Below are positions 30,912 through 49,384 of a DNA stretch of 64,000 nucleotides, piece after piece. The stretch is from Planctomycetales bacterium (GTDB taxonomy: Bacteria > 4484-113 > JAFGCY01). The stretch covers positions 3,897,188-3,961,187 of the forward strand of contig CP060262.1 of NCBI GenBank assembly GCA_022646745.1. Reading direction: 5' to 3'. The position numbers and the translations under genes were made by a program. Below the pieces are notes generated by a model. That model did not search any database. It saw nothing but the letters and a program-made list of their open reading frames with translations, and was not told where the DNA came from. Position 1 is the first letter of the stretch; every line of letters starts with the position of its first letter.

Positions 30912-30984
30912 GACCTGATTCTAGCTCAGCGGGGCACTGTCCCTGAGCTTTCCCTCCCATTACATGACTGGATCACCAACAGTG

Positions 30985-32124: not shown

Positions 32125-33412
32125 CGGCAGCCTCCAGCGCCAGGCACCTGAGCTGCTTGTCGTTGCTGATCAGGTAGATCCGGTCCTTGCTGCAGTGCAT
32201 CGCCGAGAAGCCGTTGAAGTTCTGCCCGCTGCCGATATCCAGTGCAGCCAGCCTCTCCCCTTCGCGGATCACTTCCAAGCGGAACACCTGGGACTGCTGC
32301 AGCCTCGGATTCAGCTGGCCGGCAGCCGGCGAAGCGAAAGGCAGGGCTGCAGAGACCATGGGAAACAAGGCGGACAGGTGTTCCAGTGCGGTCAGCAGGT
32401 TGTCAGTCCTGCCCGTCACCAGTGCGAATGCATCCCCCAGGTCCTGGGCATCCGAAACACTGCCGGCTTCAAGTGGAATGCTCCATTGCTCCTCAAGCTG
32501 GTAGTCCAGCGCACGCACCACGGCATCACTGGTCGGCACGAGGATCAGCCCGGCTGAACTGGCAACCTGGTTGGGACTGATGTAGAAACCGGGCGATGTA
32601 CCCAGCTGATTGATCTTCTTGTGGATCTGCTCCCCGTCCCTGACCAGGCAGAGCTGGTTGCCACCGGAGTACAGCAGTTCGCCGTTGCCGACAACTCCAC
32701 GCAGGTCCAGTATCTCCCCGCTGAAGTAGATCTGCTGTCCACCGGCCGTCTTCGCGGGAGTTTTCGGCTTGCTGGGACGTTCGAGCGGAATGCGCTCGCC
32801 ACTAATTGTGTAAATGCTCACGCTGGAGAAATCGTTGCACAGGAAGCTGTAGCTGCCGGCGTACTCGAAATAGCTTGGCAGCCCAAACGGGTCATACATC
32901 TGCCTGGTATTGACAACCCAGCATGGCTCGCCGGCCGCGCTGATTCCGTAGAGCAGGATGCCCTGCTTGAGGAAGGCGACCGCCTGGCTGCCTTCCCGTG
33001 GCTCAAGCAATTCACGGTACCGCTGCGGATCGGGCCGGCAGTTCCACAGTTCCTGTCCCTGTGCATCGAGGGCAAGCAGCTCACCCTTGCCTGTGGTCAG
33101 GTAGGTGATGGCATCTACCCGCTGGATCGGTGAGCGGATACTGTCAATCGTGTGCTCCCGGCTCCATAACACCCTGCCATCGGGAGTGATCATCTGGAGC
33201 TGTCCGGCCAGCATGTCCTGGGTGTAGACAAGGCAGCCATCTTCGGATGCATCCACTACGGCACACCATGTCGCATCAAGCTGCCTGCTCCAGAGCTGCG
33301 TGAGCCCACTGTCCCTGCCGATTGCCAGCCTGAGCGTAATCCAGCCAGCCGCCCACAGCACGGCGTAAACTGCAATTGCCAGCACCATTTTCCGGTGGAT
33401 CCTGCTTGCCAT
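32117..33412 (-). CDS. PQQ-like beta-propeller repeat protein with N-terminal membrane anchor, paralog 4 of 8
   Basis: N-terminal TM (MVLAIAVYAVLWAAGWITL); blade motif LLALDAQGQELW; 8-nt overlap with next gene. Confidence 0.75.
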   Translation of the reverse strand: MASRIHRKMVLAIAVYAVLWAAGWITLRLAIGRDSGLTQLWSRQLDATWCAVVDASEDGCLVYTQDMLAGQLQMITPDGRVLWSREHTIDSIRSPIQRVDAITYLTTGKGELLALDAQGQELWNCRPDPQRYRELLEPREGSQAVAFLKQGILLYGISAAGEPCWVVNTRQMYDPFGLPSYFEYAGSYSFLCNDFSSVSIYTISGERIPLERPSKPKTPAKTAGGQQIYFSGEILDLRGVVGNGELLYSGGNQLCLVRDGEQIHKKINQLGTSPGFYISPNQVASSAGLILVPTSDAVVRALDYQLEEQWSIPLEAGSVSDAQDLGDAFALVTGRTDNLLTALEHLSALFPMVSAALPFASPAAGQLNPRLQQSQVFRLEVIREGERLAALDIGSGQNFNGFSAMHCSKDRIYLISNDKQLRCLALEAADV

Positions 33413-33510
33413 GTTTCCCTGCCAGTCCCTGCAAAGATGCCCGTTCAGTTATTGCTCCGGGCAAACAATGGTTCAATTGTAAATCAGGACGCTGCCGGAC
33501 CGTCCCGGGT

Positions 33511-34692
33511 TCAGAAGCCACGCCACATGGAACCCGGCGGGCCATGGAAGGTGAGTACGCTGTTGTTCCCCACCTCGAACTGGCCGATCAGACCACCGGA
33601 GAAGGTCAGGGCTCCGTGGCTGCGCACCATCTCCCCATCGGCGGCCTGCCAGATGACCTGCCCGTCGGGATCCACACAGAACCCAAGCTCAGAGATGCGG
33701 AACGGGAACATCCCTTCGCGCTCGACAGAGCCGTTGTAGGCTTGCTGGTAACGGACAAAGGCAAACATATGACCGTCCGGCGCACCAACGAAGTAGGAGA
33801 AGCCGGTGTCGCCAACCGGCAGTTCGGTACGCCACAGCTCCTCACCTGCCGTGCTGATGCATAGTGCGGTCCTGCGATAATCGTGAGCAAAAATCCGTCC
33901 ATTGGACACGGCGGTCGGCAGGCAGGTAATGTCCATCTCGAGCTCCCATAGCAGCTTGCCATCGCTGTCCAGGGCTCGAAGCCTGCCGTCAGTGCTGTAA
34001 CCGTAGAAGCTGCTGCCATCCGTCACGCAGCTCTGCATTTCGGGATTGCTCCAGAGCAATTCTCCGTTCCCGTCCAGCGCAAGGATCATCCCGTAGAAGC
34101 AGCTGATATACAGCCTTTCCCCATTCGTACTCGATTGGAGTTGGGCATTGCTCCCTACATTGAATTCCCAAAGCGGATTGCCCTGCAGGTCGAATGCTCC
34201 GAGCATCTGTGCGTCATCGTCGGCAATCACCACCATCCCGTCCAGGAACGCCGCCTCATTGCCAAACTGGCAGTCAAAGGAACGGCCATAGGTTGACAGC
34301 GTAAGTTCGGTTTCCAGCGGCACCATCACGGACGGGTCCGCCCGCGACACAAGCAGGGGCCGGGAGTATGAATCAGTGATGGCCAACCAGTCGTCATTCC
34401 AGCCGCGGATCTCGAGTCGACCGGGATTGAATGTCATTTCCGAGCCATCCGGCCAGACGGCATCCATGCCTGTACCCTGTGCAATCAGCTGCTCCGGTTC
34501 ACCGGGCACCATGCGATAAAGGCTGAAAGTCGGCATGTCCAGTGAAAGGATGCTGCCATCCTCCAGCTCGGCATAGTAGTAACCGGAGAGGGAGTAACTG
34601 CGCGTGTCTGATGCCGGCAGCACTTCAGGCTGGGCTTGCAACATAGCTGATGGGATGGCAACAAGCAGCAGTGCGATGACGAGCGCTTTCAT
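33511..34692 (-). CDS. PQQ-like beta-propeller repeat exported protein, paralog 5 of 8
   Basis: Signal peptide MKALVIALLLVAIPSAMLQA; blade motifs AFDLQGNPLW, ILALDGNGELLW, LRALDSDGKLLW, VDPDGQVIW. Confidence 0.8.
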   Translation of the reverse strand: MKALVIALLLVAIPSAMLQAQPEVLPASDTRSYSLSGYYYAELEDGSILSLDMPTFSLYRMVPGEPEQLIAQGTGMDAVWPDGSEMTFNPGRLEIRGWNDDWLAITDSYSRPLLVSRADPSVMVPLETELTLSTYGRSFDCQFGNEAAFLDGMVVIADDDAQMLGAFDLQGNPLWEFNVGSNAQLQSSTNGERLYISCFYGMILALDGNGELLWSNPEMQSCVTDGSSFYGYSTDGRLRALDSDGKLLWELEMDITCLPTAVSNGRIFAHDYRRTALCISTAGEELWRTELPVGDTGFSYFVGAPDGHMFAFVRYQQAYNGSVEREGMFPFRISELGFCVDPDGQVIWQAADGEMVRSHGALTFSGGLIGQFEVGNNSVLTFHGPPGSMWRGF

Positions 34693-35888
34693 AGTCCCGC
34701 CTCCAGACCATATACCCAGACGCCTTGCCTCGCATGCCAGACCACTATGCCTCCTCCCGCAATCGCTGACATGTGATAGTCCTCGGAAAGTACGGGGCCA
34801 AACAGCGACTGCTGCCAGGCGATCCGATCGTCTGAAACCTCAAGCATGATGATGTCACTTACGAATGCTGATCCATCCTTGCCCGCAGGTAGCTCCTCGG
34901 CGGCAGGCAGGCCCACGAGAGCAGTCCCGGCTGCCTGGCCATCCGCCAGTGGCGTGCTGCCCAGCAGCAGCACGCGAGTCCCGGACTGCACCACATCAAG
35001 CACCTGCCCTGGCAGGTCCAGCGCGTCACTGTGAACCACCAGGCTGTCGTCAAGCAGGCCAAACACCCTGCCCCAGCGCCTGCCTCCCCAGCCAATGTTG
35101 CCAGTTCCGAACTGGAAGTCCTTGAATCCGCCGCTGTCAAGCGACTCCGTGCGCATGCTCGACTCCAGCGAGAAGCTGAGCTGTTGGTCCAGCAGCTGCA
35201 TACGGCCATCATCGCCATACACCAGCATCCGTCCGTCCGGCAGCACCGCCGCATGGTCCCCCCAGCGGGTGCCTTCCGGGCCGTTGATACTGTGCTTGAT
35301 GCCTTGGCTGTCCAGCCAAAGGAGCTCCCGGTCCGGCGTACGATACATCCACAGCAGGTCCAGCGGCAGCTGCTGCGGGTCAAATGGATCCAGCCAGGTG
35401 TCGTAGAGTTCTCCGTTGTCAGACATCCAGCACAAGCCGCCGCTGCTGTCCAGTCCGTAATCGAAGCGCCCGTCGGAGGTCCGCACTACTGCAGGCGCTG
35501 CGTCCGTCCCCGGCAGGTGCTCCAGTGCTTTCCACGGTTCGGGATGGAATTCCCAGGCCGGCTGCCCTTGCCTGTCCACTGCCCAAGCCTGGCCACCCAT
35601 GCCGGTGAATATCGTGAACCCGGGAAACTCGTAGCAGCGCCAGGCAATGTTCCAGCGCAGCCAGTCCGCATGCCAGATGTGCTGTCCCGTGGCATCATAG
35701 TGGGAGATGCCAAGGTTGACATCCTTGACATACAGGCCGCCCTTGTTGCCAACGACCACGGATGATTCGCCTGCTGCCGCTGGCAGGCTCCACTTCAGCT
35801 GCAGCGGATCATCCTGCGCCATCGCCACCCCGCCAGCCAGCAGGCATGCCAGCAAGGCCATAAGTCCCGTCACCCTTGTTCGTGTCAT
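34689..35888 (-). CDS. PQQ-like beta-propeller repeat exported protein, paralog 6 of 8
   Basis: Signal peptide ...LLACLLAGGVAMA; blade motif AWAVDRQGQPAW; stop overlaps next start (ATGA). Confidence 0.75.
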   Translation of the reverse strand: MTRTRVTGLMALLACLLAGGVAMAQDDPLQLKWSLPAAAGESSVVVGNKGGLYVKDVNLGISHYDATGQHIWHADWLRWNIAWRCYEFPGFTIFTGMGGQAWAVDRQGQPAWEFHPEPWKALEHLPGTDAAPAVVRTSDGRFDYGLDSSGGLCWMSDNGELYDTWLDPFDPQQLPLDLLWMYRTPDRELLWLDSQGIKHSINGPEGTRWGDHAAVLPDGRMLVYGDDGRMQLLDQQLSFSLESSMRTESLDSGGFKDFQFGTGNIGWGGRRWGRVFGLLDDSLVVHSDALDLPGQVLDVVQSGTRVLLLGSTPLADGQAAGTALVGLPAAEELPAGKDGSAFVSDIIMLEVSDDRIAWQQSLFGPVLSEDYHMSAIAGGGIVVWHARQGVWVYGLEAGL

Positions 35889-35941
35889 GGATGGATTGTA
35901 AGGCAGGGACGCTTACTATGCACAATCGCTGTTCTACCGGC

Positions 35942-37105
35942 TTATTGTTGGCTTCCTGATGAATCGACCGGATCGAGGCAGACCAAGGTTTCCGGCTTGC
36001 GCTCATAGACGTACAACCGGCCATCATAACCAGGCAGGTAGTTGCCATTGTGAGAAGCAGTCTTAGTCGAACTCCAGAGGAACCTGCCCTGTGGATCAAT
36101 GCAGCTCCACCGACTATCCCTGACGGTACTACCTGTTGTGAATCTCGATAAAAACATGCTGCGTCCAATACTCCAGTCAATTCGCCAGATAAAGACATAT
36201 CCATCCGGACTGATGTAATACGGCGAAGTGAACTCGTCGCCCATGTCATACACCCATTGTTCCTTGCCTTCCCGGTCATAGGCATGCAGGAACTGGCCAC
36301 TGCCGACAACGCACAGCGGGCTGCGTGGCTCCGTCAGCAGGCGTGGGAATTCCATGTCCAGAAGTGGAACCTGCCACTGCTCTTTGCCATCCCAATCAAG
36401 GCACAGCAGGTTTCCCTTATCGTCCAGCGTAACCAGCCTGTCACCCATGGACAGGGTGGAGAAGCAGCCCATGCGCTTCCAGAGCAGCTCTCCCTGCGGG
36501 CTGAGGCAATGCAACGAGCCGGACTGGCAACCAAGAGCAATTCGCTTGTCGTCATCTGCCCTTAGCAGGTAGCTGCCTGCGTCGCCGTTGAAGCGCCAGG
36601 CAGGCTGCAGCGCAGAGTCATATGCCTGCACGAACTGGCTGTTGTAGAGGATGACCGGATTGCCATCTAGGGAGCATGCGTCAAAGCGGTCACTCATGTT
36701 TACTCGCGGGGGCCAGCCGGATCCTTCCGGAATGCCGAGTTCGACATATTCATTGCCAGCATTGCCATCCAGCACCCAGGTCCGTCCGTCAGCGGCGACG
36801 ATGTAGCGTCCCTCACCGATCGGGACGAGCTGGTTGAGGCCCTGGCTCCTGAGGGCATCCGGCAGCAAAGGACTTCCGGATCCAGCGGAGCTGGCCTGCC
36901 CCAGGTCTACGCCGGAAAACTCACCAGCTGCTGAAACCTCTGCCATTCCCCTGCCGTGGTAAAGCCGCAGGCTGTTGTCAGGCAGCACTTCCATGCTGCC
37001 ATACAACCTGGTCTCATATGTGTGCTGTACGTTCTCCTCTTCCGCACGGGACATATCGCAGGCGGACAGGATCATTGCGCAAAGCAGCAGGGCGATGATC
37101 CTCAC
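35942..37105 (-). CDS. PQQ-like beta-propeller repeat lipoprotein, paralog 7 of 8
   Basis: Probable GTG start at 37105 (GGAG upstream, GTGA overlap with upstream stop) giving lipoprotein signal MRIIALLLCAMILSAC; blade motifs LHCLSPQGELLW, LLCLDWDGKEQW. Track ORF extends to 37138 (TTG). Confidence 0.7.
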   Translation of the reverse strand: MRIIALLLCAMILSACDMSRAEEENVQHTYETRLYGSMEVLPDNSLRLYHGRGMAEVSAAGEFSGVDLGQASSAGSGSPLLPDALRSQGLNQLVPIGEGRYIVAADGRTWVLDGNAGNEYVELGIPEGSGWPPRVNMSDRFDACSLDGNPVILYNSQFVQAYDSALQPAWRFNGDAGSYLLRADDDKRIALGCQSGSLHCLSPQGELLWKRMGCFSTLSMGDRLVTLDDKGNLLCLDWDGKEQWQVPLLDMEFPRLLTEPRSPLCVVGSGQFLHAYDREGKEQWVYDMGDEFTSPYYISPDGYVFIWRIDWSIGRSMFLSRFTTGSTVRDSRWSCIDPQGRFLWSSTKTASHNGNYLPGYDGRLYVYERKPETLVCLDPVDSSGSQQ

Positions 37106-38376
37106 TGGCCTGCTCCAATCACATAGCAGTCCAGCCAATCTCCATTGCTTATGTACACCCGGGAGCCGCTGACTGCCAGGCGAAACCTCACATTCCCGAT
37201 GTACGGGATGCTGATGCTGCCAAGTATCCGCTCATCACTGACGAGCTGTAACCTGCGGTCCGTGTTATAGCCGTAGAACCCCTGGCTTTTGAGGTACTGT
37301 GTCTTGCCGGGGAACAGGAAGCTGTCCAGTGGCTTGATGCTGTCACCGAGTTTGCGCAGGCTGCGAGCAATGTTGTCAGCATCCTGGGTCATCAATACGA
37401 AGCCGGCGTCACAGGGCTTCACTTCGTCAATCCGGCTGCTGATCGGTGCATGCTCCGCAATCTGCCGGCCCTGCAGGTCAAGGATTGCCAGGCTGGAATC
37501 ATTGAACAGCACGAGCAGGCGATTGCCGCCACAGAATGACTTATCAATCCTGACAGCGGTGGAGGGAATTGGAACCGTGAAGATCTGTGCGTCCTTGCCA
37601 TCCATTAGCTGGAAGCGATCCTCACATCGCAGCAGGGGCACCTCTCCTTCAGTCAGTCCAACCAGCTGGACCAGCTCAGGAGCTGGTGCCAGTGAAGCAT
37701 GCTCAACCGGCTTTGGCTCACTGAGCAATTCAGTGGACGGAACGGAGACGCTGCCATCCGGCCAGGCAGTTGTCATGTTGGCCCAGTTGATCACATAAGC
37801 CGCCTGCCCGTTGATTGTCATCCGGGAGTGCAGGTGCTCGATCCACGGGTCTGCTCCAGGGTTGACCGTCCAGCACAATTCTCCATCAGTCCTCAGGCCG
37901 TACAGCATGGAGCCATTCTGGCTGTATAACTCGGCAGTTGGCGCAGTTGCCAGTTTCAGTGGGTCGCTGAATTCGCGGGACTGCTCATCGTATGACCACT
38001 GCCTGTTCCCGGCTGCATCCACTGCATACATCCGGCCGTCAGTCAGGCTGATGTAGCAGTTGCCATCCTGCTCATGGACGCAGTCCTTCAAGTAGACTCC
38101 TGACTCGCGAAACGTCCAACGGACCTCTCCACTCTGTGGGTCGATCGAGATTACGCCTGCACTTATTCCACGGTTGTCCAGCAGGTACAGCCCGCCCTCA
38201 TTTCCAGCCTGCAGATTCATGTACTCGTAAGCCAAGGGGATCCGCCAGGCGTGTGTGAATGGGGATTGCTCGCGTCGGCCCTGCCCCAGGTACAGCGCTC
38301 CCGCCAGCCACAGCAGCAGGCAGGCCAGCATCGTGCCGGCAATCAGCCTGTGCTCGCGGGATGTCGCTTGCTGCAT
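37102..38376 (-). CDS. PQQ-like beta-propeller repeat protein with N-terminal membrane anchor, paralog 8 of 8
   Basis: Start set at ATG 38376 (track extension to 38472 overlaps upstream gene); TM LIAGTMLACLLLWLAGALYL; blade motifs MYAVDAAGNRQW, LYGLRTDGELCW. Confidence 0.7.
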   Translation of the reverse strand: MQQATSREHRLIAGTMLACLLLWLAGALYLGQGRREQSPFTHAWRIPLAYEYMNLQAGNEGGLYLLDNRGISAGVISIDPQSGEVRWTFRESGVYLKDCVHEQDGNCYISLTDGRMYAVDAAGNRQWSYDEQSREFSDPLKLATAPTAELYSQNGSMLYGLRTDGELCWTVNPGADPWIEHLHSRMTINGQAAYVINWANMTTAWPDGSVSVPSTELLSEPKPVEHASLAPAPELVQLVGLTEGEVPLLRCEDRFQLMDGKDAQIFTVPIPSTAVRIDKSFCGGNRLLVLFNDSSLAILDLQGRQIAEHAPISSRIDEVKPCDAGFVLMTQDADNIARSLRKLGDSIKPLDSFLFPGKTQYLKSQGFYGYNTDRRLQLVSDERILGSISIPYIGNVRFRLAVSGSRVYISNGDWLDCYVIGAGQ

Positions 38377-38399
38377 CTGCTGCAAGCATAGCGCAGAAG

Positions 38400-38795
38400 C
38401 TAGTGTTCCTCCCAGACGATCAGCGCCGCATCCGCCAGGTCGTTGTCTGGCATTCCGAACAAGCGCCGCCACATCTGCTTGAACTCGGCCTCGTCATGCG
38501 GCCACTGTTCCAGCCACTCCCTGAATTGCGGCCACTGGAACAGCGTCGGGATGTCCCCCACCCCGCGGCAGTAGTCGTGGATCATCTCCCAGCAGATCGG
38601 CACCACCGTGCCCGGCTTCTGTGCCGTGCTGCCGCGCATGAAATTCACCAGCACGCCGCGCTCGGGCTTGTCCTCGCCGCGCACCATCGCCACCCCGGTG
38701 CCCCGGTCCACGGCGTAGTAATGCGGCTCGATGTATACGATCTGCACGGCTAGGATGATAGCCGAGGGCGGCTGCTGGGAACCTCTGGCTTGCAC
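38400..38795 (-). CDS. hypothetical Trp-rich small protein, first gene of the minus-strand propeller operon
   Basis: 131-aa ORF (GTG start) ending 21 nt before paralog 8; no recognised domain. Confidence 0.4.
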   Translation of the reverse strand: MQARGSQQPPSAIILAVQIVYIEPHYYAVDRGTGVAMVRGEDKPERGVLVNFMRGSTAQKPGTVVPICWEMIHDYCRGVGDIPTLFQWPQFREWLEQWPHDEAEFKQMWRRLFGMPDNDLADAALIVWEEH

Positions 38796-38863: not shown

Positions 38864-40042
38864 ATGGATGGATTGCAGGAGCAGGCCGGTATCCGGCGAA
38901 AGGGCCTGACAATTCTGCCGGCCTGGCTGCAGGACAACCCCCTGCCCGCAATCTGGCAGCTGACCCTGCTGAAGCGCAGGCGCAAGCGCCCGATCTTCCA
39001 GTTCTACTCCGCCGCTGTGCTGTTCTTCCAGGTGCTGGCGCTGCTCTGTGTCCCGGCCTACCTGATTGACTGGTACACCAATGCCTACTTCCTCACCGAG
39101 CTGCTGATGGCGGAATCGCTTCTCTCATTCTTCTGGCTGCTGCTGGAATTCACGTCATGCCTGAACTTCGCCGGCAACCTGATGCGCAGCGAGACTTCCT
39201 CCACCTTCCCGATCATCGACGAGGCGCTGGCGGCCAGCAGCCTGCAGGACCGGGACTTCATCCTGGCAATGCTGCAGGCCAGCCTGCCGCGCCTGATGAT
39301 TCCATCCGCGCTGCTCTGTCTCGCGGTGGTGATGCTATTCCAGACTGACTTCCTGCTGTATTCATACGGGTACAACGGGCTTGGCATAGCACAGTGGCTT
39401 TCACTGACAACATTGTCAATGGTTTCGATGTCCGGCCTGCTGCTGCTGCACTTCGGCCTCGGGATGCAGCAGGAGAAACGCTTCGCCGCCAGCACCGGGA
39501 CAGTGATGGCCGGACTGGCCCAGCTGCTGACAATCGCCAGTTGGTTCCTGACCTACGACGAGGAGTGGATGACAGATTTCAGCAGCTACTGGCGCTACCA
39601 GTATTTCAACCCGCACCTGCTGGATCTCCAGAATTACTACTGCAATTCGCAGCTTGGGATGCTGCTGATCCAGTTCATGCTGGTGCTGCTGCTGCTGCAC
39701 CTGGCAACGCACAACGGATGGCTGCGCCGCCTGCTGCTGCTGGGCTGGCCGGCGCTCTGCGGCATCCTACTGACAACCTTCCTCCTCAGTCTGCAGTACA
39801 TCGATCCAGAGAATTTCTCCTACCTGACCGGACTAAGGTTCATCAGCCGCGCAGGCCAGCCGCTGTCCTTCGTCAACCTGGATGTGATATACATGCATTT
39901 TGTCGGTAACGACACCTCCGTGCAATCTGCCCATGTCGGCAGGCTGCAGGCATTGACGGTGCTGCTGCAGTTCGCATACGCGTTCACTTTCCTGCAGTTC
40001 GCCAGGAGAATGCTGTCCATCCATCGAAGGGGGACAGCATGA
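38864..40042 (+). CDS. polytopic membrane protein, family A paralog 1 (conserved N-terminal NPLP..W..L...R motif)
   Basis: ATG 38864 with AGGAGG upstream; N-terminal DNPLPAIWQLTLLKRRRKR followed by multiple hydrophobic helices. Confidence 0.7.
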   Translation: MDGLQEQAGIRRKGLTILPAWLQDNPLPAIWQLTLLKRRRKRPIFQFYSAAVLFFQVLALLCVPAYLIDWYTNAYFLTELLMAESLLSFFWLLLEFTSCLNFAGNLMRSETSSTFPIIDEALAASSLQDRDFILAMLQASLPRLMIPSALLCLAVVMLFQTDFLLYSYGYNGLGIAQWLSLTTLSMVSMSGLLLLHFGLGMQQEKRFAASTGTVMAGLAQLLTIASWFLTYDEEWMTDFSSYWRYQYFNPHLLDLQNYYCNSQLGMLLIQFMLVLLLLHLATHNGWLRRLLLLGWPALCGILLTTFLLSLQYIDPENFSYLTGLRFISRAGQPLSFVNLDVIYMHFVGNDTSVQSAHVGRLQALTVLLQFAYAFTFLQFARRMLSIHRRGTA

Positions 40043-41280
40043 TCAACAGGCTCATTGCTCATATCATGCGTATCACCCGCGGCTGGGTCACTGCCCTGCT
40101 GGATATCCGCCGCAATCCGTTGCCCGCGGCCTGGGGCATGTCCGAATCACGCGGCAATGCGGCCTACCTCAAGCGCTTCGCGATCGGGATGGGCCTGTAC
40201 GGCATTGCCAGCTGGCTTGGGATCATCGCGAGCGCTAGTTACCTGACCGGTGACCAGCTGGCCAACAACAAACAGAGCTTCGTGAACAACTACTTCTTCG
40301 AGCTGGAGGACCTTGGCAACTGGCTGCTGCAGCAGCCCGGCGCTGCCTGGTGCCTGCTGCTGGCCCTGGCCTGGCTGCTTGTAACTTTCCGCAAGGCAAT
40401 CACCACTTCGCTGGGCTTCCTCGACAGCGAACCACGCCAGCAGACGCATATCACCTATGACGACATGCTGGCCTGTTCGCAACTCAACGAGTACGAGGTG
40501 CTGCTCGGTGCGCTTTACTACTGTGTCCGCCTCGTGTTCCTGCCCCTGCTGGCATTCTCAATCTGTTGTGCCTATTCCACATACAGCTTCTTCGAGGCTG
40601 AGATTGCCGGCAATTTCAACGGCGGACTCGCCGGCCTGCTGGCGCACATGTTCGCTGCAGTGCCACTGCTGTTCACCTCCGGCATGCTGGCGGCAATCGC
40701 ATTGTTCCTGCTGACAATCAGCCTGAGCCTGAGCTCCCGCCAGCGTACCGCTCCGCAGGTCGGCGGCTTCCTGCACACCACGGTGCAGTTCCTGCTGATC
40801 GTGCTGGCAGCCTACCTGCTCTACTCGCAGTTCCAGTACTGGGGCTTCACGAATGACGCAGTGTTCCGCGATTTCGGCAACGTGATGTTCAGCATCAGCT
40901 TCCTGGTGACAACCCTGATGCTCTACCTCGCCCGGCGGCTGAACTGGCTGCGCATGCTGCTGCAGCAGGGCTTCCCGGTGCTGCTTGGAGCCTTCCACCT
41001 GTTCTGTGCACTGCCGCTGGCCTATGCCTATACACTGGACAGCGACTGGCTGAACATGCTCAGCATTGCGGCTGACGGCCTGCGTCCACTGAGCCTGTCA
41101 GCCACGGCGCTACAGGCCAGCTGGCTGCAGCAGATCCAACATCCCTACTGGGCGCGGGGCGACCGCGGCTTTGAGTACTACGCGATCGTCTCGCAGCTGA
41201 TCGTGCAGTTGGCCTACCTCGCCCTGTTCGCTGAGTTTGCCCGTGACGCAGTGCGCCGTCGCAAGTGGGGCGTGATGTGA
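40039..41280 (+). CDS. polytopic membrane protein, family A paralog 2
   Basis: ATGA overlap with previous gene; N-terminal RRNPLPAAWGM...; multiple TM helices. Confidence 0.7.
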   Translation: MINRLIAHIMRITRGWVTALLDIRRNPLPAAWGMSESRGNAAYLKRFAIGMGLYGIASWLGIIASASYLTGDQLANNKQSFVNNYFFELEDLGNWLLQQPGAAWCLLLALAWLLVTFRKAITTSLGFLDSEPRQQTHITYDDMLACSQLNEYEVLLGALYYCVRLVFLPLLAFSICCAYSTYSFFEAEIAGNFNGGLAGLLAHMFAAVPLLFTSGMLAAIALFLLTISLSLSSRQRTAPQVGGFLHTTVQFLLIVLAAYLLYSQFQYWGFTNDAVFRDFGNVMFSISFLVTTLMLYLARRLNWLRMLLQQGFPVLLGAFHLFCALPLAYAYTLDSDWLNMLSIAADGLRPLSLSATALQASWLQQIQHPYWARGDRGFEYYAIVSQLIVQLAYLALFAEFARDAVRRRKWGVM

Positions 41281-43913
41281 ATCAGGGCTGGATCGCTGCG
41301 TTTCGTGAGGCATGGCATAGCCCGCTGCTGGAGCTCTGGCAGCGGCAGGATTCACGGCGAAGCACCCGTGGTTTCTGGCTGTCCAGCCCGGGACTGCTGC
41401 TGCTGGCCACTCCGCTTGTAATCCTGCTCTACTGGCTTCTGGTCCGCCAGCTGGGCATCCTTGCACATGCAGCTGGCAATGAAGGCATGAACCCGATCCT
41501 CGCATCGGCAGTATTCTGGCTGGCAATCAATGCCAGCATCAAATACCTGGTCCTCATCGTTACCTTCATCTGCTGCGCCAGGCTGTATCGCGTGCTGGCG
41601 GACAGTGGCAGCCTGCTGGATGGAAGGAGCGGCAAGCGTGCACAGCTTGACAATGCAATGGCTGTCAGCATGCTGGATGACCGGCACCTGGTCGCCGCCC
41701 AGCACATCAGCAACTTCCGCCTGCTGTATCCATGGATCGTCCTGCTGTCCCTTTTGCTGGGCCTGCACCGGGTTGTGTGCGCATTTGGCCACGCCGCTGT
41801 CGAAGCCCCGGATGCCATCGGGCTGGCAGTCCGGCTTGTGCTTCATCCGCTTTGGTCCAGCCTGCTGGCGGCAGTGGCCCTGTTGATCCTCGGCAACTTC
41901 GCCATCGCGGCCGGCAGCGCAGCAGCAGCAAGCCGCCTGTTCCTGATTGGTGTTGCTGGGATGTCTGTCTGCCAGTTCGGCGTGGCGGCGACGCTCTACT
42001 ATTTCGCAACTGACAATTTCATTGGCATTGACGACTGCCTGGTCATGCTGCCAGCCCTGACGGGCCTGTTGCCCGGCCTGCTGCTGGTGTTCGTCGCCGG
42101 CTTCGCATCCAGATCCGCAGGCTTGCTTCGCATTTTTTCCAGCGGGCTGGGTATGATCCCACTCGCCGGCATTGCCCTGGCGGGCCTGCTCTGTGACAGG
42201 ATGTTCATGTTGAGTTTCAGCGACCAGAACATCGAGTCGGGCCTCTGCGTCTTCCAGGCCTGCGTGAACCTCCAGGCAATCTCGGTATTGCCTGTTCTGC
42301 CGGACACGCTCGAATTCATGGGCCTGGTTGGCAATCCATATGGCAGCCCGGATGCAGTGTTCCCGGGGATGATGCTCAGCTTTCTCGTCGGGATGCAGCT
42401 CCTGCTACTGCGTGTGTCCTCCCATTTTGCTACCAGCTGCCTTGCTGAGCGCCGCGCACGACAGGAATCCGCCAATGAATCCCCCCGAAGCACTGCAAGC
42501 AAGGCAAGGAAGCAATCAGGGAATCCTCAACGAGTAGATGCAGTGTTCGCTGTCCTGCTCGTCGGTATTCCACTGCTGCTGACTATGGCAACGATGATCT
42601 CCGCCAGGTTGATTCGTCCCCCATTGCTGGAGTCAAAAGATCCCTTCGAGCAATGGTTCCTGGACTGTTTCCAGCGCGGACAATCGCAGGCAGCATGGAC
42701 CAGCGGCCTGCGCAACGGCACGATGAGCCTGCGGATGTCGGAGGTCCTTGGACAGGATTATAGCTACACTGACGACCTGATCGACCAGTCAATCCACTAC
42801 CTGATGCAGGATGCTGCCGTCCGGCTCGAAACCGGCAATCCCGGCGATGTAGATCCCAGGCTGGCTCGCCTGTGCTTCATCGCCTATGAAACCAATCACT
42901 CCGTGGCTTATCCCCAGCTGACAGAGGAATGGAACAAGTTATATGAGCAGTATCCATGCCTGCAGCATGACCCCCAGGCGATTGCCATCATTGCCGAGAT
43001 CAGATTGCAGAAGCTTGGCTGGGAGGATTTCGCGCCGGCGTACATGAATACGCGGCCGGCCTTTTCGTCAGATCCGAAATCAGCTTTCTACAGCCGCGAC
43101 TGGATGCCGGAGGATGACTACCAGGCACTGAAGCAGCTTTATGCCTCAATTGACGATTCGCTCGCAGACAATGCATTTCCATACCATCTGGAGGTCTGCC
43201 GCCGTTTGGCAAATGACGACCTGAATGGGGCAATGGAAGTGATTCGTGGCAGCAGCAAAGCCCAGCTGGCAGACACGCGGCTCAATCTGCTCGCCGCGCT
43301 TGCGTTGGACGAACCAGAGAAATTTGATCCATTGAGCCGATACTGCCTCTACTGGCCGGGGTTCAATCGGATACAGAGCATGAATAATCAATATTTCTCA
43401 GACTTCTTTTCAGCCAGTCGCCAGCTTTGTAAGGAAAGCCGTACAGACGACCTGCAACTCCTGCATGACTACATCCTCCGATTCAGCAAGCTGCTTGGGC
43501 CATATGATGCCAACGAGATCCACCGAGCCATGCTGCAGGGGATTCCGGCAAACTACATTGGCATTGAAAGTAACCGTGCATTTAAGGATGCCAAGTCTGC
43601 CGCCAACAGCCTGCAGTACTCCGAGGCTCTATATGGTCCCAGTCCCTCAATCATCTATGGGAATAATCACACGGTGGGCATACAGTTGCTGGAAGGACAT
43701 CTGGCATTTACCCGCCCTCATCCGGATTCCGTTGCGATGTATACATATTTCCTGGGACTGAATGATGAGAAGCTCGTACTGGAAGCAATGACTCAGGCTG
43801 AGCAAAGGGAATATGAATCCATCATCTCACTTGACTGGACAGCACTGGATTGCTCACCGGCGGCGGACTCGACTGATTCCGCTGAGGAAGCAGGAGAATC
43901 GCAATCCCCTTAA
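41265..43913 (+). CDS. fusion protein: family A polytopic membrane domain + family B membrane-anchored extracytoplasmic domain
   Basis: N-terminal HSPLLELWQRQDSRRSTRGFWLSSPG and TM helices; internal anchor VDAVFAVLLVGIPLLLTMA followed by ~500-aa soluble region whose C-terminus (ISLDWTALD) resembles family B (IRNLDWTSLD); GTG start overlapping previous gene. Confidence 0.7.
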   Translation: MGRDVNQGWIAAFREAWHSPLLELWQRQDSRRSTRGFWLSSPGLLLLATPLVILLYWLLVRQLGILAHAAGNEGMNPILASAVFWLAINASIKYLVLIVTFICCARLYRVLADSGSLLDGRSGKRAQLDNAMAVSMLDDRHLVAAQHISNFRLLYPWIVLLSLLLGLHRVVCAFGHAAVEAPDAIGLAVRLVLHPLWSSLLAAVALLILGNFAIAAGSAAAASRLFLIGVAGMSVCQFGVAATLYYFATDNFIGIDDCLVMLPALTGLLPGLLLVFVAGFASRSAGLLRIFSSGLGMIPLAGIALAGLLCDRMFMLSFSDQNIESGLCVFQACVNLQAISVLPVLPDTLEFMGLVGNPYGSPDAVFPGMMLSFLVGMQLLLLRVSSHFATSCLAERRARQESANESPRSTASKARKQSGNPQRVDAVFAVLLVGIPLLLTMATMISARLIRPPLLESKDPFEQWFLDCFQRGQSQAAWTSGLRNGTMSLRMSEVLGQDYSYTDDLIDQSIHYLMQDAAVRLETGNPGDVDPRLARLCFIAYETNHSVAYPQLTEEWNKLYEQYPCLQHDPQAIAIIAEIRLQKLGWEDFAPAYMNTRPAFSSDPKSAFYSRDWMPEDDYQALKQLYASIDDSLADNAFPYHLEVCRRLANDDLNGAMEVIRGSSKAQLADTRLNLLAALALDEPEKFDPLSRYCLYWPGFNRIQSMNNQYFSDFFSASRQLCKESRTDDLQLLHDYILRFSKLLGPYDANEIHRAMLQGIPANYIGIESNRAFKDAKSAANSLQYSEALYGPSPSIIYGNNHTVGIQLLEGHLAFTRPHPDSVAMYTYFLGLNDEKLVLEAMTQAEQREYESIISLDWTALDCSPAADSTDSAEEAGESQSP

Positions 43914-43934
43914 CATGCTCGTCTGTGGGCGGGA

Positions 43935-45344
43935 TTGAATGCCGGGCAGCCCTCGGCTATGATCAAGGAAGAGTACCGGAGATGGCTGGAGCCATCGTAT
44001 CCGGGTGGGAGCAGTATGGCGGTTCGACAACATGAACCTGAAGCAAAGCTGGACGGAGCTGTCCGGCCTGCTGCTGCGCCAGCAAAATTCCCCTCTTCAC
44101 TGCGGCAGGAAAGTGGGAAAGCAGGCAGCTGGCTCGGAGCTGCCCTTGCCATCCGCCAGAATCCATTGCTGAATCTCTGGATCCTGCAGGAGAGGCGCAG
44201 GGCGGAATCCAGAAGCTTCTGGCTGTCAAACCCGGCGCTGCTGGCGGGAACATCAATTGTCAGCGTGCTCGCCTGCATCATACTGGTCCGGCAGTTACTG
44301 GCACTTGTCGAGGCCCGGACCGCCGGTGCAGTCAACCCGATGCCGGCCTCAGCCGCCTTCTGGACTGCAGTCAATGCGATCCTCTGGCTGGCGATAATCT
44401 ACTTCGGCATGCTCTCCATCGGGCGGATCTTCCTCGCGATGCGCAATTCAGTCGCGCTACTGGAGACCGGCCAGGGCAACCAGCGCCTGCGGCTCGATGA
44501 CAACCTCGTGATCACGGAAATGGGCAGCCACCAGATCATCATGGCCCAGATCGCCGACAACCTGCGCCTGGTGCTGCCGGCCAACATCCCGCTGACCCTG
44601 TTGCTCGGGCTGCAGTCCCAGCTCAGCGGCTATGCAAGAATCCTTGACAACCTGCCAGGCGCGATGGACAGCCTGCAGAACCTGCTGCTGATTCCCCTGC
44701 TGTCGATAATCGGCAGCATCCTTGGCACTGTGCTCCTGGGCGCAATCCTGATCGGGGCCGGCCTGCTGGCTGACAGCACCCGCCTGCAGGTCGGGGCGGC
44801 GGTCGGTGTTTTACTGATCCAGGCCTGGCTGTTGTTCCTGATGGCAACCGGCAGGGAGGTATTCAATCTAGGTATGGTTGAGGGCAGCGGCTGGGTGATC
44901 TCAGCGCTTGGGCTGTTCCCCCTGCTTGTAATGATGCTGCCGGTTTTCCTCGCTGGCTTCAGCCCCTTGTTTAGGCGTATCCTGGCAGGCGGACTGATCC
45001 TCTGGATGGGTTTTGCCCTGACCCTGCTGTATGGCATCTGCCTGTTGTCAGACCTGCGCATCTGGCTGGCAGAACCGAATGCTGTCGGGATGGGCCTGCA
45101 GGTCGGAAAGCAGAGCTTGCAGGTCTTCAGTTGCACGCCCCTGACAGGGATTGTCTACCAGCACTTGCAGGCGGTCATCCTCGGCAACCGGCAGGATCCT
45201 GCATTCTTCCTGAGTGTCTGGCAACCTGTCTACACCTATAGCGTCCCGCTGGCAGGATTCCTTCTGCAGGCAGCCTGCATCACCGGAGCCCTGCGCTTTG
45301 CGCTCTTGATGATGGACAAACGGAGGCTTGGCAGCCATGACTGA
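43935..45344 (+). CDS. polytopic membrane protein, family A paralog 4
   Basis: Motif IRQNPLLNLWILQERRRAESRSFWLSNPA then TM helices; start uncertain (TTG 43935 per track; ATG 43959 or ATG 44016, the latter with GGGAG upstream). Confidence 0.65.
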   Translation: MNAGQPSAMIKEEYRRWLEPSYPGGSSMAVRQHEPEAKLDGAVRPAAAPAKFPSSLRQESGKAGSWLGAALAIRQNPLLNLWILQERRRAESRSFWLSNPALLAGTSIVSVLACIILVRQLLALVEARTAGAVNPMPASAAFWTAVNAILWLAIIYFGMLSIGRIFLAMRNSVALLETGQGNQRLRLDDNLVITEMGSHQIIMAQIADNLRLVLPANIPLTLLLGLQSQLSGYARILDNLPGAMDSLQNLLLIPLLSIIGSILGTVLLGAILIGAGLLADSTRLQVGAAVGVLLIQAWLLFLMATGREVFNLGMVEGSGWVISALGLFPLLVMMLPVFLAGFSPLFRRILAGGLILWMGFALTLLYGICLLSDLRIWLAEPNAVGMGLQVGKQSLQVFSCTPLTGIVYQHLQAVILGNRQDPAFFLSVWQPVYTYSVPLAGFLLQAACITGALRFALLMMDKRRLGSHD

Positions 45345-46764
45345 CAACCATTCGGCCATGCCAGTCGAACACTCACCTGCACCTGGTCCTCCGCGGCGCT
45401 TCCTCAGGTTCGACCGTGCACTCAGCCTGCTGCTGTTTGGGCTGCCCGCATTGCTTGCATTCACAGTCTCACTTACTGCAGTTACGGTGCCTGTTGTTCA
45501 TTTCAACAGCGGTGATGAGTTTGCCGACTGGCTGTTCAATGCCGCCCTGCAGGCCCAGCATGATGCATGCTGGCAGGGTGTGAAGGCGAGCCGGGCTGCG
45601 GATAACTGGCTTCCGGAGAGCTACTATTTCAGGTCAAATGCATACTATCGGGAAAGCGTCCTCTTCGGCAACAAGCTGGCAGACGCGATCCAGCAGCAGC
45701 TGGATCTTGACCCGCATGATCCGCGGGTGATCTGGCTGGCTGCAGCTGGAATGCCCATTGATTATCGCGATTATGACAACAGCTTGCAGACAAAGTCGCG
45801 TTTCCTTCTCGAGCAGGATGCAGGGGGGATGCTGGACCGCCAGGGCCTGGAACTGCTGGCATATTTCATCAACCAGGTCGGACCGTTTGAACTGGTTGAA
45901 CAGGAACGCTGGCGGGGACTTAACATTTCCTACTTCGACCTCGGCGATCCATCACAATCTGCCCTGACAGCCGAAGTCCGTGAGCAGGTGACCGATATTC
46001 TGCGGCGGGTTGACAGTCTGCCTCCCGGCAATGCCCAGCACCTTGAACTGCGGTTCACTCAGCTGATGAACAACGACGACTTTGCCGAGGCCCTGGCACT
46101 GCTTGGCCGGTATCCCGGGCTCGAGGCAGCGCCCAGTGACGTTGGCATGCTTGCCAGCCTCGGACTGCAGGAACCGGACGGCCTGGATGACATAACGCGT
46201 GCCCAGCTGCAGTTCTTCGGGCTTGCCAACTGGAACAACACCCTGCGCATGGACTACCAGAAAGTGCAACAGGCCAGCCGTGAGTTGCTGGCAAGCGGCA
46301 GCCTTGACAAGCTTCAGCAGCTCCACGAATTCCTCTGGAAACTCGGAGGGATGGGCAGCCCGGGCGACCAGCTTGGGCACACAGCTGAAATGCTGTCTGC
46401 CTTGCCACCATCTGTCCTGCATGACCCTGCCAACCAGGAATTCCGACTTTCACAGCAGGACATATATGCGCTGACCTCCAATTCGTGGACGGCTAATGAC
46501 CCAGGCCTGCTGCAGCAGGCTGTCCTGCTCCTCGATTACCAACTCAGCGGAGAAAGGCTCGGTCTGTATGGACCGAACCCCATGTACCAGGATTACTACA
46601 CTTCACAGCCAACTCGTTCCAGGATAATCGAACAACTTGGCCCCAATGCTGCAGAACAGTTTGAGCGGATCCGCAATCTCGACTGGACATCCCTTGACCT
46701 CAGCTCAGCCCAGCCTGCTGACTTCGTTGATCCAGCTGAACAGGCCGCCTCGACTGATACATGA
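45337..46764 (+). CDS. bitopic membrane-anchored protein, family B paralog 1
   Basis: ATG 45337 with GGAGG upstream, overlaps end of previous gene; single N-terminal anchor RFDRALSLLLFGLPALLAFTV then ~430-aa W/Y-rich domain. Confidence 0.7.
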   Translation: MTDNHSAMPVEHSPAPGPPRRFLRFDRALSLLLFGLPALLAFTVSLTAVTVPVVHFNSGDEFADWLFNAALQAQHDACWQGVKASRAADNWLPESYYFRSNAYYRESVLFGNKLADAIQQQLDLDPHDPRVIWLAAAGMPIDYRDYDNSLQTKSRFLLEQDAGGMLDRQGLELLAYFINQVGPFELVEQERWRGLNISYFDLGDPSQSALTAEVREQVTDILRRVDSLPPGNAQHLELRFTQLMNNDDFAEALALLGRYPGLEAAPSDVGMLASLGLQEPDGLDDITRAQLQFFGLANWNNTLRMDYQKVQQASRELLASGSLDKLQQLHEFLWKLGGMGSPGDQLGHTAEMLSALPPSVLHDPANQEFRLSQQDIYALTSNSWTANDPGLLQQAVLLLDYQLSGERLGLYGPNPMYQDYYTSQPTRSRIIEQLGPNAAEQFERIRNLDWTSLDLSSAQPADFVDPAEQAASTDT

Positions 46765-48179
46765 GACAATCAGCAACGGGGATGGATACAGCAGGCACAC
46801 AACCTGGAGCGAGGAGCCGCCCACGCTGGCAGCTGATAGACCGCGCGCTGGATCTGCTGGTTGTCGGGCTGCCCCTGCTGCTGGCGCTTGCCTGTGTGAT
46901 TGCCAGTTACGTCGTCAAGCCCTACCGCATGGATACCGGAGATCCCTACCTGAACTGGTATGGCAACCAGCTGATGGACAGTGCCGACCAGGTGCTGGCA
47001 ACGGATCCGCTCCTGCCGGATTACTACAGCACAGGCGACTACTATCTGTTGCCTGATTTCCGCAAGCGCTTCGAGGAAGCACGAACCTCTTTCAGTGGCG
47101 ATCCACGCTACTGGATGGAGTATGCCGATCTGACACGCGCCGAGATCTGGTTCGGAAGTGGTGACAACTATTCCGAACAGGACTCGGAAGCGGCTTATGA
47201 GGCAGTGATGCGTGAGGGCCTGTCCAGCCCCGGCGCCAGCCCTGAAATGTTCATCCCGCTTGAGTGCCGCCCGATCGAGACCTCAGTGCTGGCGGACGGT
47301 GTGACCCGCGGCAACAAGGAAGGCCGACCGAATTTCCTCTGGAACCATCCGGAAGAAGTGACAGCAATGCTTGAGCAGGCCGGACGGCTGCCGGTGCAGG
47401 ATACCGTCAGCCGCCTGCTGCAGGCAACATACTGGAGCTGCGGCGGGGAGTACGGGCGCGCCCGTGAACAGCTGCTGGCAATCCGGGACCAGCCGGGCCC
47501 TTCCCTGCCTGACATGAATGAGCTGATGATCAAGTCGGCAGCCAGACCAAACACGGCGGTCATGGCCAGCCGGGGCTGGTCCATGCAGTATCCGTCCAGC
47601 ATTTACGTGGTGAATTCTGACCTGCGCAGCGGACTGGACGAGCTGGCGGAACAGGCCTGGCTGGCCGGAGACTACGAGGTGATTGACATCCTGCGCCAGT
47701 CCATCATCGATGGCAGGGGCGCTTCCGGCACGATCCTCGGCCAGCTGATGACGACTGTCAACCTCGGCAAGGTTGACAGCCGCATCTACAAGGTCACTAC
47801 CGACCCTGCTGAACTGTCAATGATGCTAGAGCTGCGTGCCCGCAAGAATGTGTGGCGAGACAAGGTCCGCTCAACAATCGGGCGGGAACTCAGTCCCTGG
47901 GTGGTCGGACGCTGCACGCTGGAAGGTGCCCTCAGCGGTGGACGGGGCTTTCACAGCGGATACGGTATTGCCTATGGCCGTCTGCTTCAGGATGAGTATG
48001 CCGACCTGCTGGGCATCCAGCCCCAGTGGGATGCGGTTGCGAATTTCAGTTACAGCAAATTGGCCTTCCCAGACGGCTGGACACCATCTGAATCGGACCT
48101 GCGGATTGCCGAGGGAGAAATTGCCAACAATCCCGGCGAGCGCCTGTACCGCGAGGTTTCCGACGGTGAGCAACCGTGA
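46761..48179 (+). CDS. bitopic membrane-anchored protein, family B paralog 2
   Basis: ATGA overlap; anchor IDRALDLLVVGLPLLLALACVIA paralogous to preceding gene. Confidence 0.7.
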   Translation: MRQSATGMDTAGTQPGARSRPRWQLIDRALDLLVVGLPLLLALACVIASYVVKPYRMDTGDPYLNWYGNQLMDSADQVLATDPLLPDYYSTGDYYLLPDFRKRFEEARTSFSGDPRYWMEYADLTRAEIWFGSGDNYSEQDSEAAYEAVMREGLSSPGASPEMFIPLECRPIETSVLADGVTRGNKEGRPNFLWNHPEEVTAMLEQAGRLPVQDTVSRLLQATYWSCGGEYGRAREQLLAIRDQPGPSLPDMNELMIKSAARPNTAVMASRGWSMQYPSSIYVVNSDLRSGLDELAEQAWLAGDYEVIDILRQSIIDGRGASGTILGQLMTTVNLGKVDSRIYKVTTDPAELSMMLELRARKNVWRDKVRSTIGRELSPWVVGRCTLEGALSGGRGFHSGYGIAYGRLLQDEYADLLGIQPQWDAVANFSYSKLAFPDGWTPSESDLRIAEGEIANNPGERLYREVSDGEQP

Positions 48180-49384
48180 GTGCCAACTGGACCAGCGCAA
48201 TCCGTGGCCTGCGTGACAATCCCCTGCCGGCACTGTGGCAGCTGCAGGAACTGCGCCAGCACGGGCAGCGCAGCCGCTGGCTGTCCAGCCCCGGCTATAT
48301 GCTGCTTGCCATCCTGGTCAGTGCGCTGGCCTGTTACCTGCTGCTGCTGCAACTCGGAATGGCAGGTGCGGTCTGGCAGGAGGGAGCGCACCCGGTGATT
48401 CGCCACAGCCTGCGCGGGATGGGCTTTGGCGTGTCCCTGGCTTTCACCGGAGCCATCTCCTTTCTACTGGCAATGGCCCGGCTGCACCATGGAATCCTGT
48501 TCTGCGGCAGCCTGCTGGCAATGCGGGACAGCCGCCGGCGCTGGGCCTTTGATGAGGTTGTGGCATCAACTGAGCTTGGCAACCGGGAGATCATCGCCGC
48601 GGCGATCTGGCATTCGCTGCGCCGCGTGATGCCACCACTCGCACTCAGCCAACTGGTGTTTTCGGTGATGTCCGGCATCTGGGTGGCTGACATGCTGCAT
48701 GACCACTCCCTCCCGGATGCAGCATGGCGCTGGCTGCTGCCCCTACTGTTCCTGCTGGGCATGCTGCTGCTGTCCACGCTGGCTGTCGCCACCCTTTGCG
48801 CCCTCTCGATCTCCACCAGCAGTCCTGACCAGCACCCGGCCCAGCCAATGCTGCTGGCAGCGAATGCCTACCCGCTGCAACTGCTGATGCTGGCGGCCCA
48901 GCTTCTGTTGCCGATCTGGCGTCCAGATGAGTATTACACCGAAGCCCCATCTTTACTGGTGGTGAATCCACTGGATGTCGTCTCGCTGGGGTTCGGAATG
49001 CTGATGCCCGTCATCATGGTCCTGCTGCTGGAACTGATGTGCCGGGCTGGCAACACCCGAAGTTATGCGGCCTTTGCCCTGCTGCCGGTGGTCGGCCTGC
49101 TGCTTGCCTTTGGCTGGGGCGTGATGTCAATTGTCTATGACGAGCTGCTGTCCTCCACATATCCGCTGGATGGACCCCTTTTCAGCCTCGCATCCAACTG
49201 GTGCATCTTCCCGTTGTACCTCAGCTATCCACTGCAGGACCTGGCCCGCAACGGTATTCCAGGCTATGCGATTCACTGGATGAGTCTCTGCCTGTTTCCC
49301 GTACATTTGCTCCTGCTCCTAGGTGCCCTTTACAAATTTGCGCAACGAGCAGCCGGGAACCTGGACCGCGAACTGCGGGTCTGA
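48176..49384 (+). CDS. polytopic membrane protein, family A paralog 5
   Basis: GTGA overlap; N-terminal RDNPLPALWQLQELRQHGQRSRWLSSPG; about 8 predicted TM helices. Confidence 0.7.
   Translation: MSANWTSAIRGLRDNPLPALWQLQELRQHGQRSRWLSSPGYMLLAILVSALACYLLLLQLGMAGAVWQEGAHPVIRHSLRGMGFGVSLAFTGAISFLLAMARLHHGILFCGSLLAMRDSRRRWAFDEVVASTELGNREIIAAAIWHSLRRVMPPLALSQLVFSVMSGIWVADMLHDHSLPDAAWRWLLPLLFLLGMLLLSTLAVATLCALSISTSSPDQHPAQPMLLAANAYPLQLLMLAAQLLLPIWRPDEYYTEAPSLLVVNPLDVVSLGFGMLMPVIMVLLLELMCRAGNTRSYAAFALLPVVGLLLAFGWGVMSIVYDELLSSTYPLDGPLFSLASNWCIFPLYLSYPLQDLARNGIPGYAIHWMSLCLFPVHLLLLLGALYKFAQRAAGNLDRELRV

Follow-up and report, generated by a model that had tools for sequence, protein, structure and literature searches.

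The closest described counterparts of the proteins discussed here are the ABC-2 permeases that form the membrane part of type V ATP-binding cassette (ABC) exporters, among them Wzm, TarG, NosY, PmtD, and KpsM. The canonical permease has six transmembrane (TM) helices, and in the structures solved for type V exporters, contact with the ATPase is made by the N-terminal amphipathic helices and by the loop between TM2 and TM3. In the NosDFY, KpsMT–KpsE, and LptB2FG–LptC systems the permease is joined by an accessory subunit; NosD is a beta-helix and LptC is a beta-jellyroll. A natural fusion of permease and accessory subunit is not known from these three systems. The subject here is a gene in a 64,000-nucleotide stretch of contig CP060262.1 from a Planctomycetales bacterium (the window), with an 882-residue open reading frame (ORF) that combines two membrane-protein families, A and B. 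A first-pass annotation of the sequence had proposed that this ORF is a natural fusion and that the two families therefore act as one complex.

The A/B system departs from the described permeases in several respects. Family A has no detectable sequence similarity to ABC-2 permeases and is predicted to have eight TM helices, not six. The A/B loci examined carry no ATPase gene in the operon, and family A shows obligatory pairing with, or fusion to, family B. Obligatory pairing, two natural fusions, and the absent cis ATPase set the module apart from known ABC-2 permeases. Family B differs from the accessory subunits of NosDFY, KpsMT–KpsE, and LptB2FG–LptC in having no sequence match to them and in being predicted as an all-helical repeat. 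The system resembles classical Rosetta-stone pairs in that proteins encoded separately in a genome are also found as one chain, with adjacency and a second fusion adding support; it differs in that the fused and split paralogues share one operon rather than being divided between species. The reading that we favor, and hold to be probable, is that two inner-membrane subunits form a conserved module and that the fusion carries both of them in a single chain.

The Fused Gene and Its Two Halves

In BLASTP comparisons within the window, residues 9–295 of the fusion match the family A protein A3 with 31% identity (299 aa, 88.6 bits), and residues 5–156 match A4 with 33% identity (60–66 bits), in keeping with the original reading of the N-terminal half as A-like. 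Residues 423–881 align with the family B protein B1 at 21.6% identity over 473 aa (66–70 bits). The match to B2 covers residues 422–465, the TM anchor alone (34% identity, 41 bits). The proposed likeness of the C-terminal half to family B is thus borne out for B1 and holds for B2 at the anchor, with weak similarity elsewhere; the outcome named beforehand as fatal to it, a C-terminal half unlike family B, was not obtained, given the B1 match. Because the likeness to B2 is weak outside the anchor, the C-terminal half is assigned on its sequence to the B1-like clade.

The internal TM segment, VDAVFAVLLVGIPLLLTMA, had been compared with the family B anchor, and it does align with the anchors of both B1 and B2, which share with it a conserved D-x8-G-x-P-x-LL motif with invariant D, G, P, and LL columns. 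At the other end, the SLDWTAL of the fusion aligns with the ends of the family B proteins in a common SLDWT(A/S)L motif, again as first noted. Family alignments show that the N-terminal part is a complete A protein, through the last TM helix and basic tail, and that the C-terminal part has all of a B protein, starting with the D..G.P.LL anchor and finishing with the LDWT.L end motif. When neighboring A and B proteins from five genomes are joined, they are colinear with the fusion over the full length.

The fused frame is intact in four genomes (that of the window, UBP7 HKST-UBA01, HKST-UBA03, and AC1.30), and the proteins of the latter three, at loci L004, L003, and L001, are 91, 89, and 35% identical to the window fusion. 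A protein of 870 aa from a metagenome-assembled genome (MAG), P0002, is encoded at a syntenic locus and shows 32% identity in a local BLAST alignment over 99% of the length and 35% in a global alignment. A Logan contig carrying the fusion is 100% identical over 8253 nt; most likely it was re-assembled from the reads that gave the window. The ratio of nonsynonymous to synonymous substitution rates (dN/dS, Nei–Gojobori) against the two close alleles is 0.15–0.22 for the A part, 0.08–0.23 for the linker, 0.25–0.30 for the B part, and 0.23–0.25 for the whole fusion. Since the ratio is low in all three parts, the whole frame, including the junction, is under purifying selection. Within the limits of sequence data, a frameshift or an overlooked stop codon can be excluded, and the 882-residue ORF is, by this evidence, a real and selected fusion. 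The first-pass view of a natural fusion is sustained by the same frame in three other genomes and by dN/dS values of 0.15–0.30.

Pairing of Families A and B

A profile built from the fusion, A3, and B1 was used in an exhaustive HMMER scan of 1.84 billion cluster representatives at E ≤ 0.001. The threshold is reached by 23 representatives, which are A-only, B-only, or fused (three), with none of any other kind. A and B are two previously undescribed membrane-protein families that are rare and confined to a few uncultured lineages.

The neighborhoods of the profile matches were checked with local A and B hidden Markov models (HMMs). Across several lineages, 11 further adjacencies place an A gene beside a B gene, and the stop and start codons mostly overlap; in the neighborhoods of profile-matched proteins the order is always A then B. 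The window contributes A3–B1 and B2–A4, and L004 has an extra A–B pair (459 and 481 aa). Single A–B pairs are found at L008, L009, L015, L016, and L018, with the B genes of L015 and L016 scoring 81 and 66 bits against the B HMM. Locus L007 has the arrangement A–B–A, and L017 has two modules, A–B and A–B–B. The split arrangement that the first-pass annotation had suggested looking for in relatives therefore exists, as separate adjacent genes in several lineages.

A second fusion of 765 aa (P0020/P0028) consists of an A4-like module followed by a B2-like domain; the fusion of the window is A3-like plus B1-like. The two fusions join different subfamilies, which argues for two independent fusion events. 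The gene order of the A4-like/B2-like pair also differs, being B2 then A4 in the window and A then B in the fused P0020/P0028. The protein H7A35_09450 (P0028) is 99.9% identical to P0020 and is encoded on the same 4.11-Mb contig as H7A35_15860, which is identical to the window protein A2; the organism thus carries both fusions. The second fusion (H7A35_09450; loci L013, L014, and L006) adjoins an IMPDH-like gene and is unrelated to the propeller and protease cluster described below.

No Pfam domain is found above its curated cut-off in any sequenced A or B member, so the link between the families does not come from a promiscuous domain. The Rosetta-stone inference is supported because homology, conserved adjacency, and repeated fusion all agree, and it is very likely that A and B form one complex. 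The earlier proposal of a joint complex is strengthened by the 11 adjacencies, by the second fusion, and by a join that is predicted to be topologically seamless. The fusion offers a natural single-chain construct and is an obvious target for determining the structure of the complex.

Predicted Fold and Topology

Protein A2 was modeled alone and without a template, with a predicted local distance difference test score (pLDDT) of 73.8 and a predicted template modeling score (pTM) of 0.76. The top 16 matches in a search with this model are all ABC exporter permeases, with scores of 10.9 for Wzm, 10.6 for NosY, 10.4 for PmtD, 9.9 for TarG, 9.9 for a second Wzm, 8.8 for KpsM, 8.3 for Rv1217c, and 8.2 for ABCA4. 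The same permease families are recovered independently with the fusion model. Family A is predicted to share the TM fold of Wzm, TarG, NosY, and ABCG/ABCA, and from the models it is likely that its fold is that of ABC-2 (type V exporter) permeases, enlarged by two helices.

The AlphaFold2 model of the whole fusion was made from an 18-row alignment without a template and has a mean pLDDT of 73.6 and a pTM of 0.74. MAFFT alignments that mixed full- and half-length rows smeared the short rows over the fusion, and the cleanly aligning 18-row set was used. The model is entirely helical. Two N-terminal amphipathic helices (9–17 and 20–32) carry a W..A.R...NPL..LW....RR motif and are followed by predicted TM helices at 42–71, 77–116, 139–176, 184–216, 223–248, 261–281, 298–316, and 366–403. 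The linker at 404–420 has pLDDT below 50 at 406–418 and contains 4 K/R in its 17 residues. The helical domain of the family B part spans 460–854 in the model.

The charge distribution gives the orientation of the chain. Loops assigned to the cytoplasm contain 15 K/R and the four short outside loops contain 0, and the B domain is acidic (63 D/E versus 35 K/R); this places both ends of the A module and the linker in the cytoplasm and the B domain outside. Because the C terminus of A and the N terminus of B are both cytoplasmic by the positive-inside rule, the two can be fused seamlessly with no topological rearrangement.

Type V topology is also predicted in detail, with helices 9–17 and 20–32 preceding TM1 and a short helix (130–133) in the TM2–TM3 loop (117–138), which carries the near-invariant D129. 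The best-conserved parts of family A are these N-terminal amphipathic helices and the cytoplasmic loop around D129. The loop motif, LE...R....LDD.LA.S.LS..E.L, may resemble the usual ABC-2 motif after TM2, a likeness noticed by eye and taken as a lead only. Family A is filed as ABC-2-like and not as a member of any described family, because fold and topology agree while sequence models and an operon ATPase are lacking. Two blocks of hypothetical membrane proteins thereby become a defined two-subunit module with a recognizable fold that sequence methods missed.

No Pfam family, NCBIfam family, or PDB chain matches family B in sequence, and the family is new. Identification of B with GldG-like, Wzz/PCP, or LptC partners was rejected, there being no match to any Pfam family. 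A CPBP/Abi-type immunity protein was likewise rejected in view of the missing Pfam match, as was a defense system reading; PADLOC gave no matches for the A and B proteins. Literature searches returned nothing specific to the two families, and the variable ABC-2 permease genes in ANME-1 (PMC13385816) are a loose parallel only.

Proposed Mechanism

In the favored reading, subunit A would be a very divergent ABC-2-fold permease, with both ends cytoplasmic and with two amphipathic helices preceding eight that span the membrane. Subunit B would be bitopic, with a short basic cytoplasmic N terminus, one TM helix, and an acidic, helical, partly tetratricopeptide repeat (TPR)-like outer domain of about 430 residues. 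In the fusion, the cytoplasmic C terminus of A would run through the 17-residue basic linker into the B anchor, the B helix would pack on the A bundle, and the B domain would cap the periplasmic face of A. By analogy with NosY–NosD, KpsM–KpsE, and LptFG–LptC, the module may act like the membrane part of a type V exporter together with its accessory subunit. Its cargo could be a hydrophobic or lipid-anchored component of the envelope, which it would move or extract and then hand to periplasmic partners; candidates for these partners, encoded nearby, are the BamB-like propeller lipoproteins, the M6 protease, and the giant lipoproteins.

An ABC ATPase encoded elsewhere would drive the module. The best-conserved parts of A are the elements that contact the ATPase in type V exporters. 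ATPase-driven export is a tentative part of the proposal, and confidence in any particular substrate is low. If the fold assignment is right, ABC-2-fold permeases can be encoded without an ATPase and with an obligatory bitopic partner, as in every locus seen, and the absence of a cis ATPase raises the question of whether energy is supplied in trans or not at all.

Evidence Against and Alternative Explanations

A number of results weigh against the reading of A–B as an exporter module. There is no ABC ATPase gene beside any A–B module in the window or at L001, L003, L004, L006–L009, and L013–L018; ABC-2 permeases do not usually lack one. The proposed substrate is guessed from neighboring genes, and in distant lineages the A–B pairs come without any propeller, protease, or giant-protein genes. 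Family A has no Pfam or NCBIfam match at E < 1, and no weak Pfam match recurs among 20 members at E ≤ 10. A profile search of the PDB with family A came back empty, a comparison with E. coli YadH by hhalign gave a probability of 0.1 (a single-sequence comparison that has no power), and Foldseek of the whole fusion model against the PDB found no matches. The B domain has no specific structural match, giving generic helical repeats only. Finally, the models come from shallow alignments of 17–18 rows, with low confidence at 240–370 of the fusion and 334–376 of A2.

Such ABC ATPases as do occur all belong to other transporters. In the window, ABC ATPase domains are confined to two adjacent full-length ABC exporters (ABC_membrane plus ABC_tran) at 6204–9811 on the plus strand, 24% identical to each other, which have TM domains of their own and are separated from the A/B operon by 29 kb. 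At L013, an ABC_tran gene about 6 kb upstream on the opposite strand is paired with a BPD_transp_1 importer permease.

The missing ATPase lends itself to the chief alternative, which we consider unlikely but worth weighing, namely that A–B is an ATPase-independent module. Within a hypervariable envelope locus, the ABC-2 fold would have been put to new use in a scaffold, a receptor, or an immunity-type protein, and B would be an exposed, diversifying binding domain. Roles in phage-receptor variation, self/non-self recognition, or protection against the neighboring giant secreted proteins would fit. The presence of several paralogues in one operon favors this alternative, as does the mosaic structure of the locus.

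The mosaic is seen when the window and L004 (HKST-UBA01) are compared as one group with L003 (HKST-UBA03) and L001 (AC1.30) as the other. A3, B1, B2, A4, and the propellers are 41–59% identical in amino acid sequence between groups versus 85–96% within them, apart from the propeller genes PQQc and PQQd at 59–61%, and so form two deep haplotypes; the flanking M6 peptidase and BIG2 genes are 84–86% identical between groups. The fusion breaks this pattern. L003 has a window-type allele (89%), and when window 41283–44282 is compared with L003 10001–13000, nucleotide identity is about 91% over 41583–43982 and 50–65% on both sides. The A1, A3, B1, B2, and A4 proteins of the window and L003 are 42–59% identical, and L001 holds a third allele of the fusion (35%) at the same place. 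High identity in the fusion between divergent flanks indicates that the fusion gene was exchanged as one cassette, and such exchange of whole genes also speaks for a variable envelope module.

A further point on that side is the extra A–B pair at L004, in the closest relative, HKST-UBA01; the pair lies between A2 and the fusion and is missing from the window. A direct repeat of about 35 nt surrounds it, made of the A2 3' end and the fusion start, GCAAGTGGGGCGTGATGT[GA]AA[TG]CAGGGCTGGA, and this sequence arrangement suggests that the pair was gained or lost by recombination at the repeat. Few other loci in an uncultured phylum show the exchange of gene-sized cassettes among envelope genes as clearly.

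Other evidence is hard to square with an ATPase-free recognition module. Between close alleles, dN/dS is 0.07–0.30, and on this scale nothing points to positive selection. Conservation in A is strongest in its cytoplasmic parts, which suggests a partner that is likewise cytoplasmic and conserved, and PADLOC found no matches. In distant lineages the A–B pair is single-copy among housekeeping genes, which better fits a core envelope function. A more specific version is a shade less likely again: an ATPase-less, ABC-2-fold A locked to B would be the variable core of a cassette-swapping UBP7 envelope locus, in which B domains, in the periplasm or at the surface, diversify for recognition together with the paired propeller lipoproteins, in phage evasion or kin discrimination. 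If this were true, strains would exchange the fused gene as an A and B unit that is already matched.

An alternative to the ABC-2 assignment itself, that the helices of family A have a connectivity other than type V, is improbable. It draws on the lack of any sequence-level signal to an ABC-2 family, the negative Foldseek result, the shallow alignments behind the models, and the eight TM helices where six are canonical. Against it, the fusion model independently returns the same permease families, and the modeling was template-free. The possibility that the fusion is a pseudogene in decay, or an artefact of a missed stop, a frameshift, or a chimeric assembly, and uninformative on function, can be dismissed almost outright, and an assembly artefact was rejected: although the window comes from a MAG and the Logan contig is probably built from the same reads, the same fused frame occurs in three other genomes from other assemblies, purifying selection extends across the junction, and a second, unrelated fusion joins the same two families.

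Operon Layout and Neighboring Genes

The A/B operon is tightly packed on the plus strand in the order A1, A2, fusion, A3, B1, B2, A4 (Table 1), so that fused and split versions coexist within it as paralogues. Stop and start codons overlap by 4 nt at four junctions (ATGA, GTGA, ATGA, and GTGA). The ORF given by the first-pass annotation exists, and its start is refined. The true start is probably 41277 and not 41265, because the GTG at 41277 overlaps the stop of A2 as GTGA and because the resulting 878-aa product agrees with the independent gene call P0001.

Table 1. Coordinates of the fusion, its parts, and the surrounding genes (window positions unless a locus is named)
Feature	Coordinates	Strand	Description
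Fusion ORF	41265..43913	+	882 aa if begun at GTG 41265; 878 aa from the more probable start, GTG 41277
Family A module	41265..42473	+	aa 1–403; two amphipathic helices, 8 TM, N-in/C-in; predicted ABC-2 / type V exporter permease-like fold
Basic cytoplasmic linker	42474..42524	+	aa 404–420, NESPRSTASKARKQSGN; predicted disordered; A C terminus to B N terminus
Family B TM anchor	42525..42611	+	aa 421–449, contains VDAVFAVLLVGIPLLLTMA; helix 421–449 in model
Family B periplasmic all-alpha domain	42612..43910	+	aa 450–882; acidic, partly TPR-like helix pairs (predicted); SLDWTAL and acidic tail
A1	38864..40042	+	Family A paralogue without B partner; first gene of operon
A2	40039..41280	+	Directly upstream of fusion in A/B operon
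A3	43935..45344	+	Family A paralogue in window nearest to N-terminal half of fusion; alternative start 44166
B1	45328..46764	+	Family B, same clade as C-terminal half of fusion; alternative start 45358
B2	46761..48179	+	Divergent family B (B2-like clade); ATGA overlap with B1
A4	48176..49384	+	Family A paralogue; GTGA overlap with B2; order here B then A
Direct repeat (~35 nt), two copies	L004 6960–7001, 9987–10028		Around extra A–B pair
Direct repeat (~35 nt), single copy	41251–41292		
Eight BamB-like (PQQ_2) beta-propeller genes	28504..38472	-	Two alternating subtypes; divergent from A/B operon
M6 (InhA-like) metallopeptidase with Big_7 domains	24987..28493	+	Peptidase_M6 match; syntenic in relatives
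Two giant paralogues	49462–53574 and 53788–59040	+	1370 and 1750 aa, 37% identical; directly downstream

Antisense and out-of-frame ORFs of 100–170 aa occur inside the fusion gene, for example at 41110–42502 on the minus strand. They have no support as genes and are the usual by-product of coding sequence with about 60% G+C.

The locus is found in genomes of candidate phylum UBP7. Like described clusters of BamB-like propellers and M6 peptidases, the neighbors of the A/B operon match PQQ_2 and Peptidase_M6 and are syntenic in relatives; unlike the A–B pairing, this context lies outside the fusion and is absent from the loci of distant A–B pairs. One propeller subtype has a lipobox or signal peptide (genes at 28504, 30985, 33511, and 35942) and the other an N-terminal membrane anchor (29685, 32117, 34689, and 37102), and their alternation suggests four heterotypic pairs. 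The two propellers nearest the divergent promoter (window 35942–38472, minus strand, compared with L004 1723–4181) are replaced in L004 by divergent versions, 44% identical in amino acid sequence over 205 residues for the one matched pair, with flanks 88–94% identical in nucleotide sequence.

The first giant protein has a lipobox (LSAC), and neither giant protein has a Pfam match. Between the window and L001, the second giant protein shows 86% identity, compared with 41–55% for the A/B and propeller genes of the same two genomes. The L001 locus of MAG AC1.30 shows several further changes. An insertion sequence element (HTH_38 plus rve) has entered among the propeller genes at 6864–7832 on the minus strand, and only a 51-aa C-terminal remnant of A1 is left upstream of the fusion (9849–10004, plus strand). 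The C-terminal third of the giant gene at 18540–21302 (plus strand) is low-complexity Arg/Ala/Ser, as expected for a frameshift.

Between the propellers and the A/B operon lies a small ORF of 131 aa (38400–38795, minus strand), with no Pfam or PADLOC match and a conserved 115-aa core starting IVYIEPHYYAVDRGTG. It is present at L008 too, and it is about 88% identical in nucleotide sequence even to L001, where its neighbors are about 45% identical in amino acid sequence.

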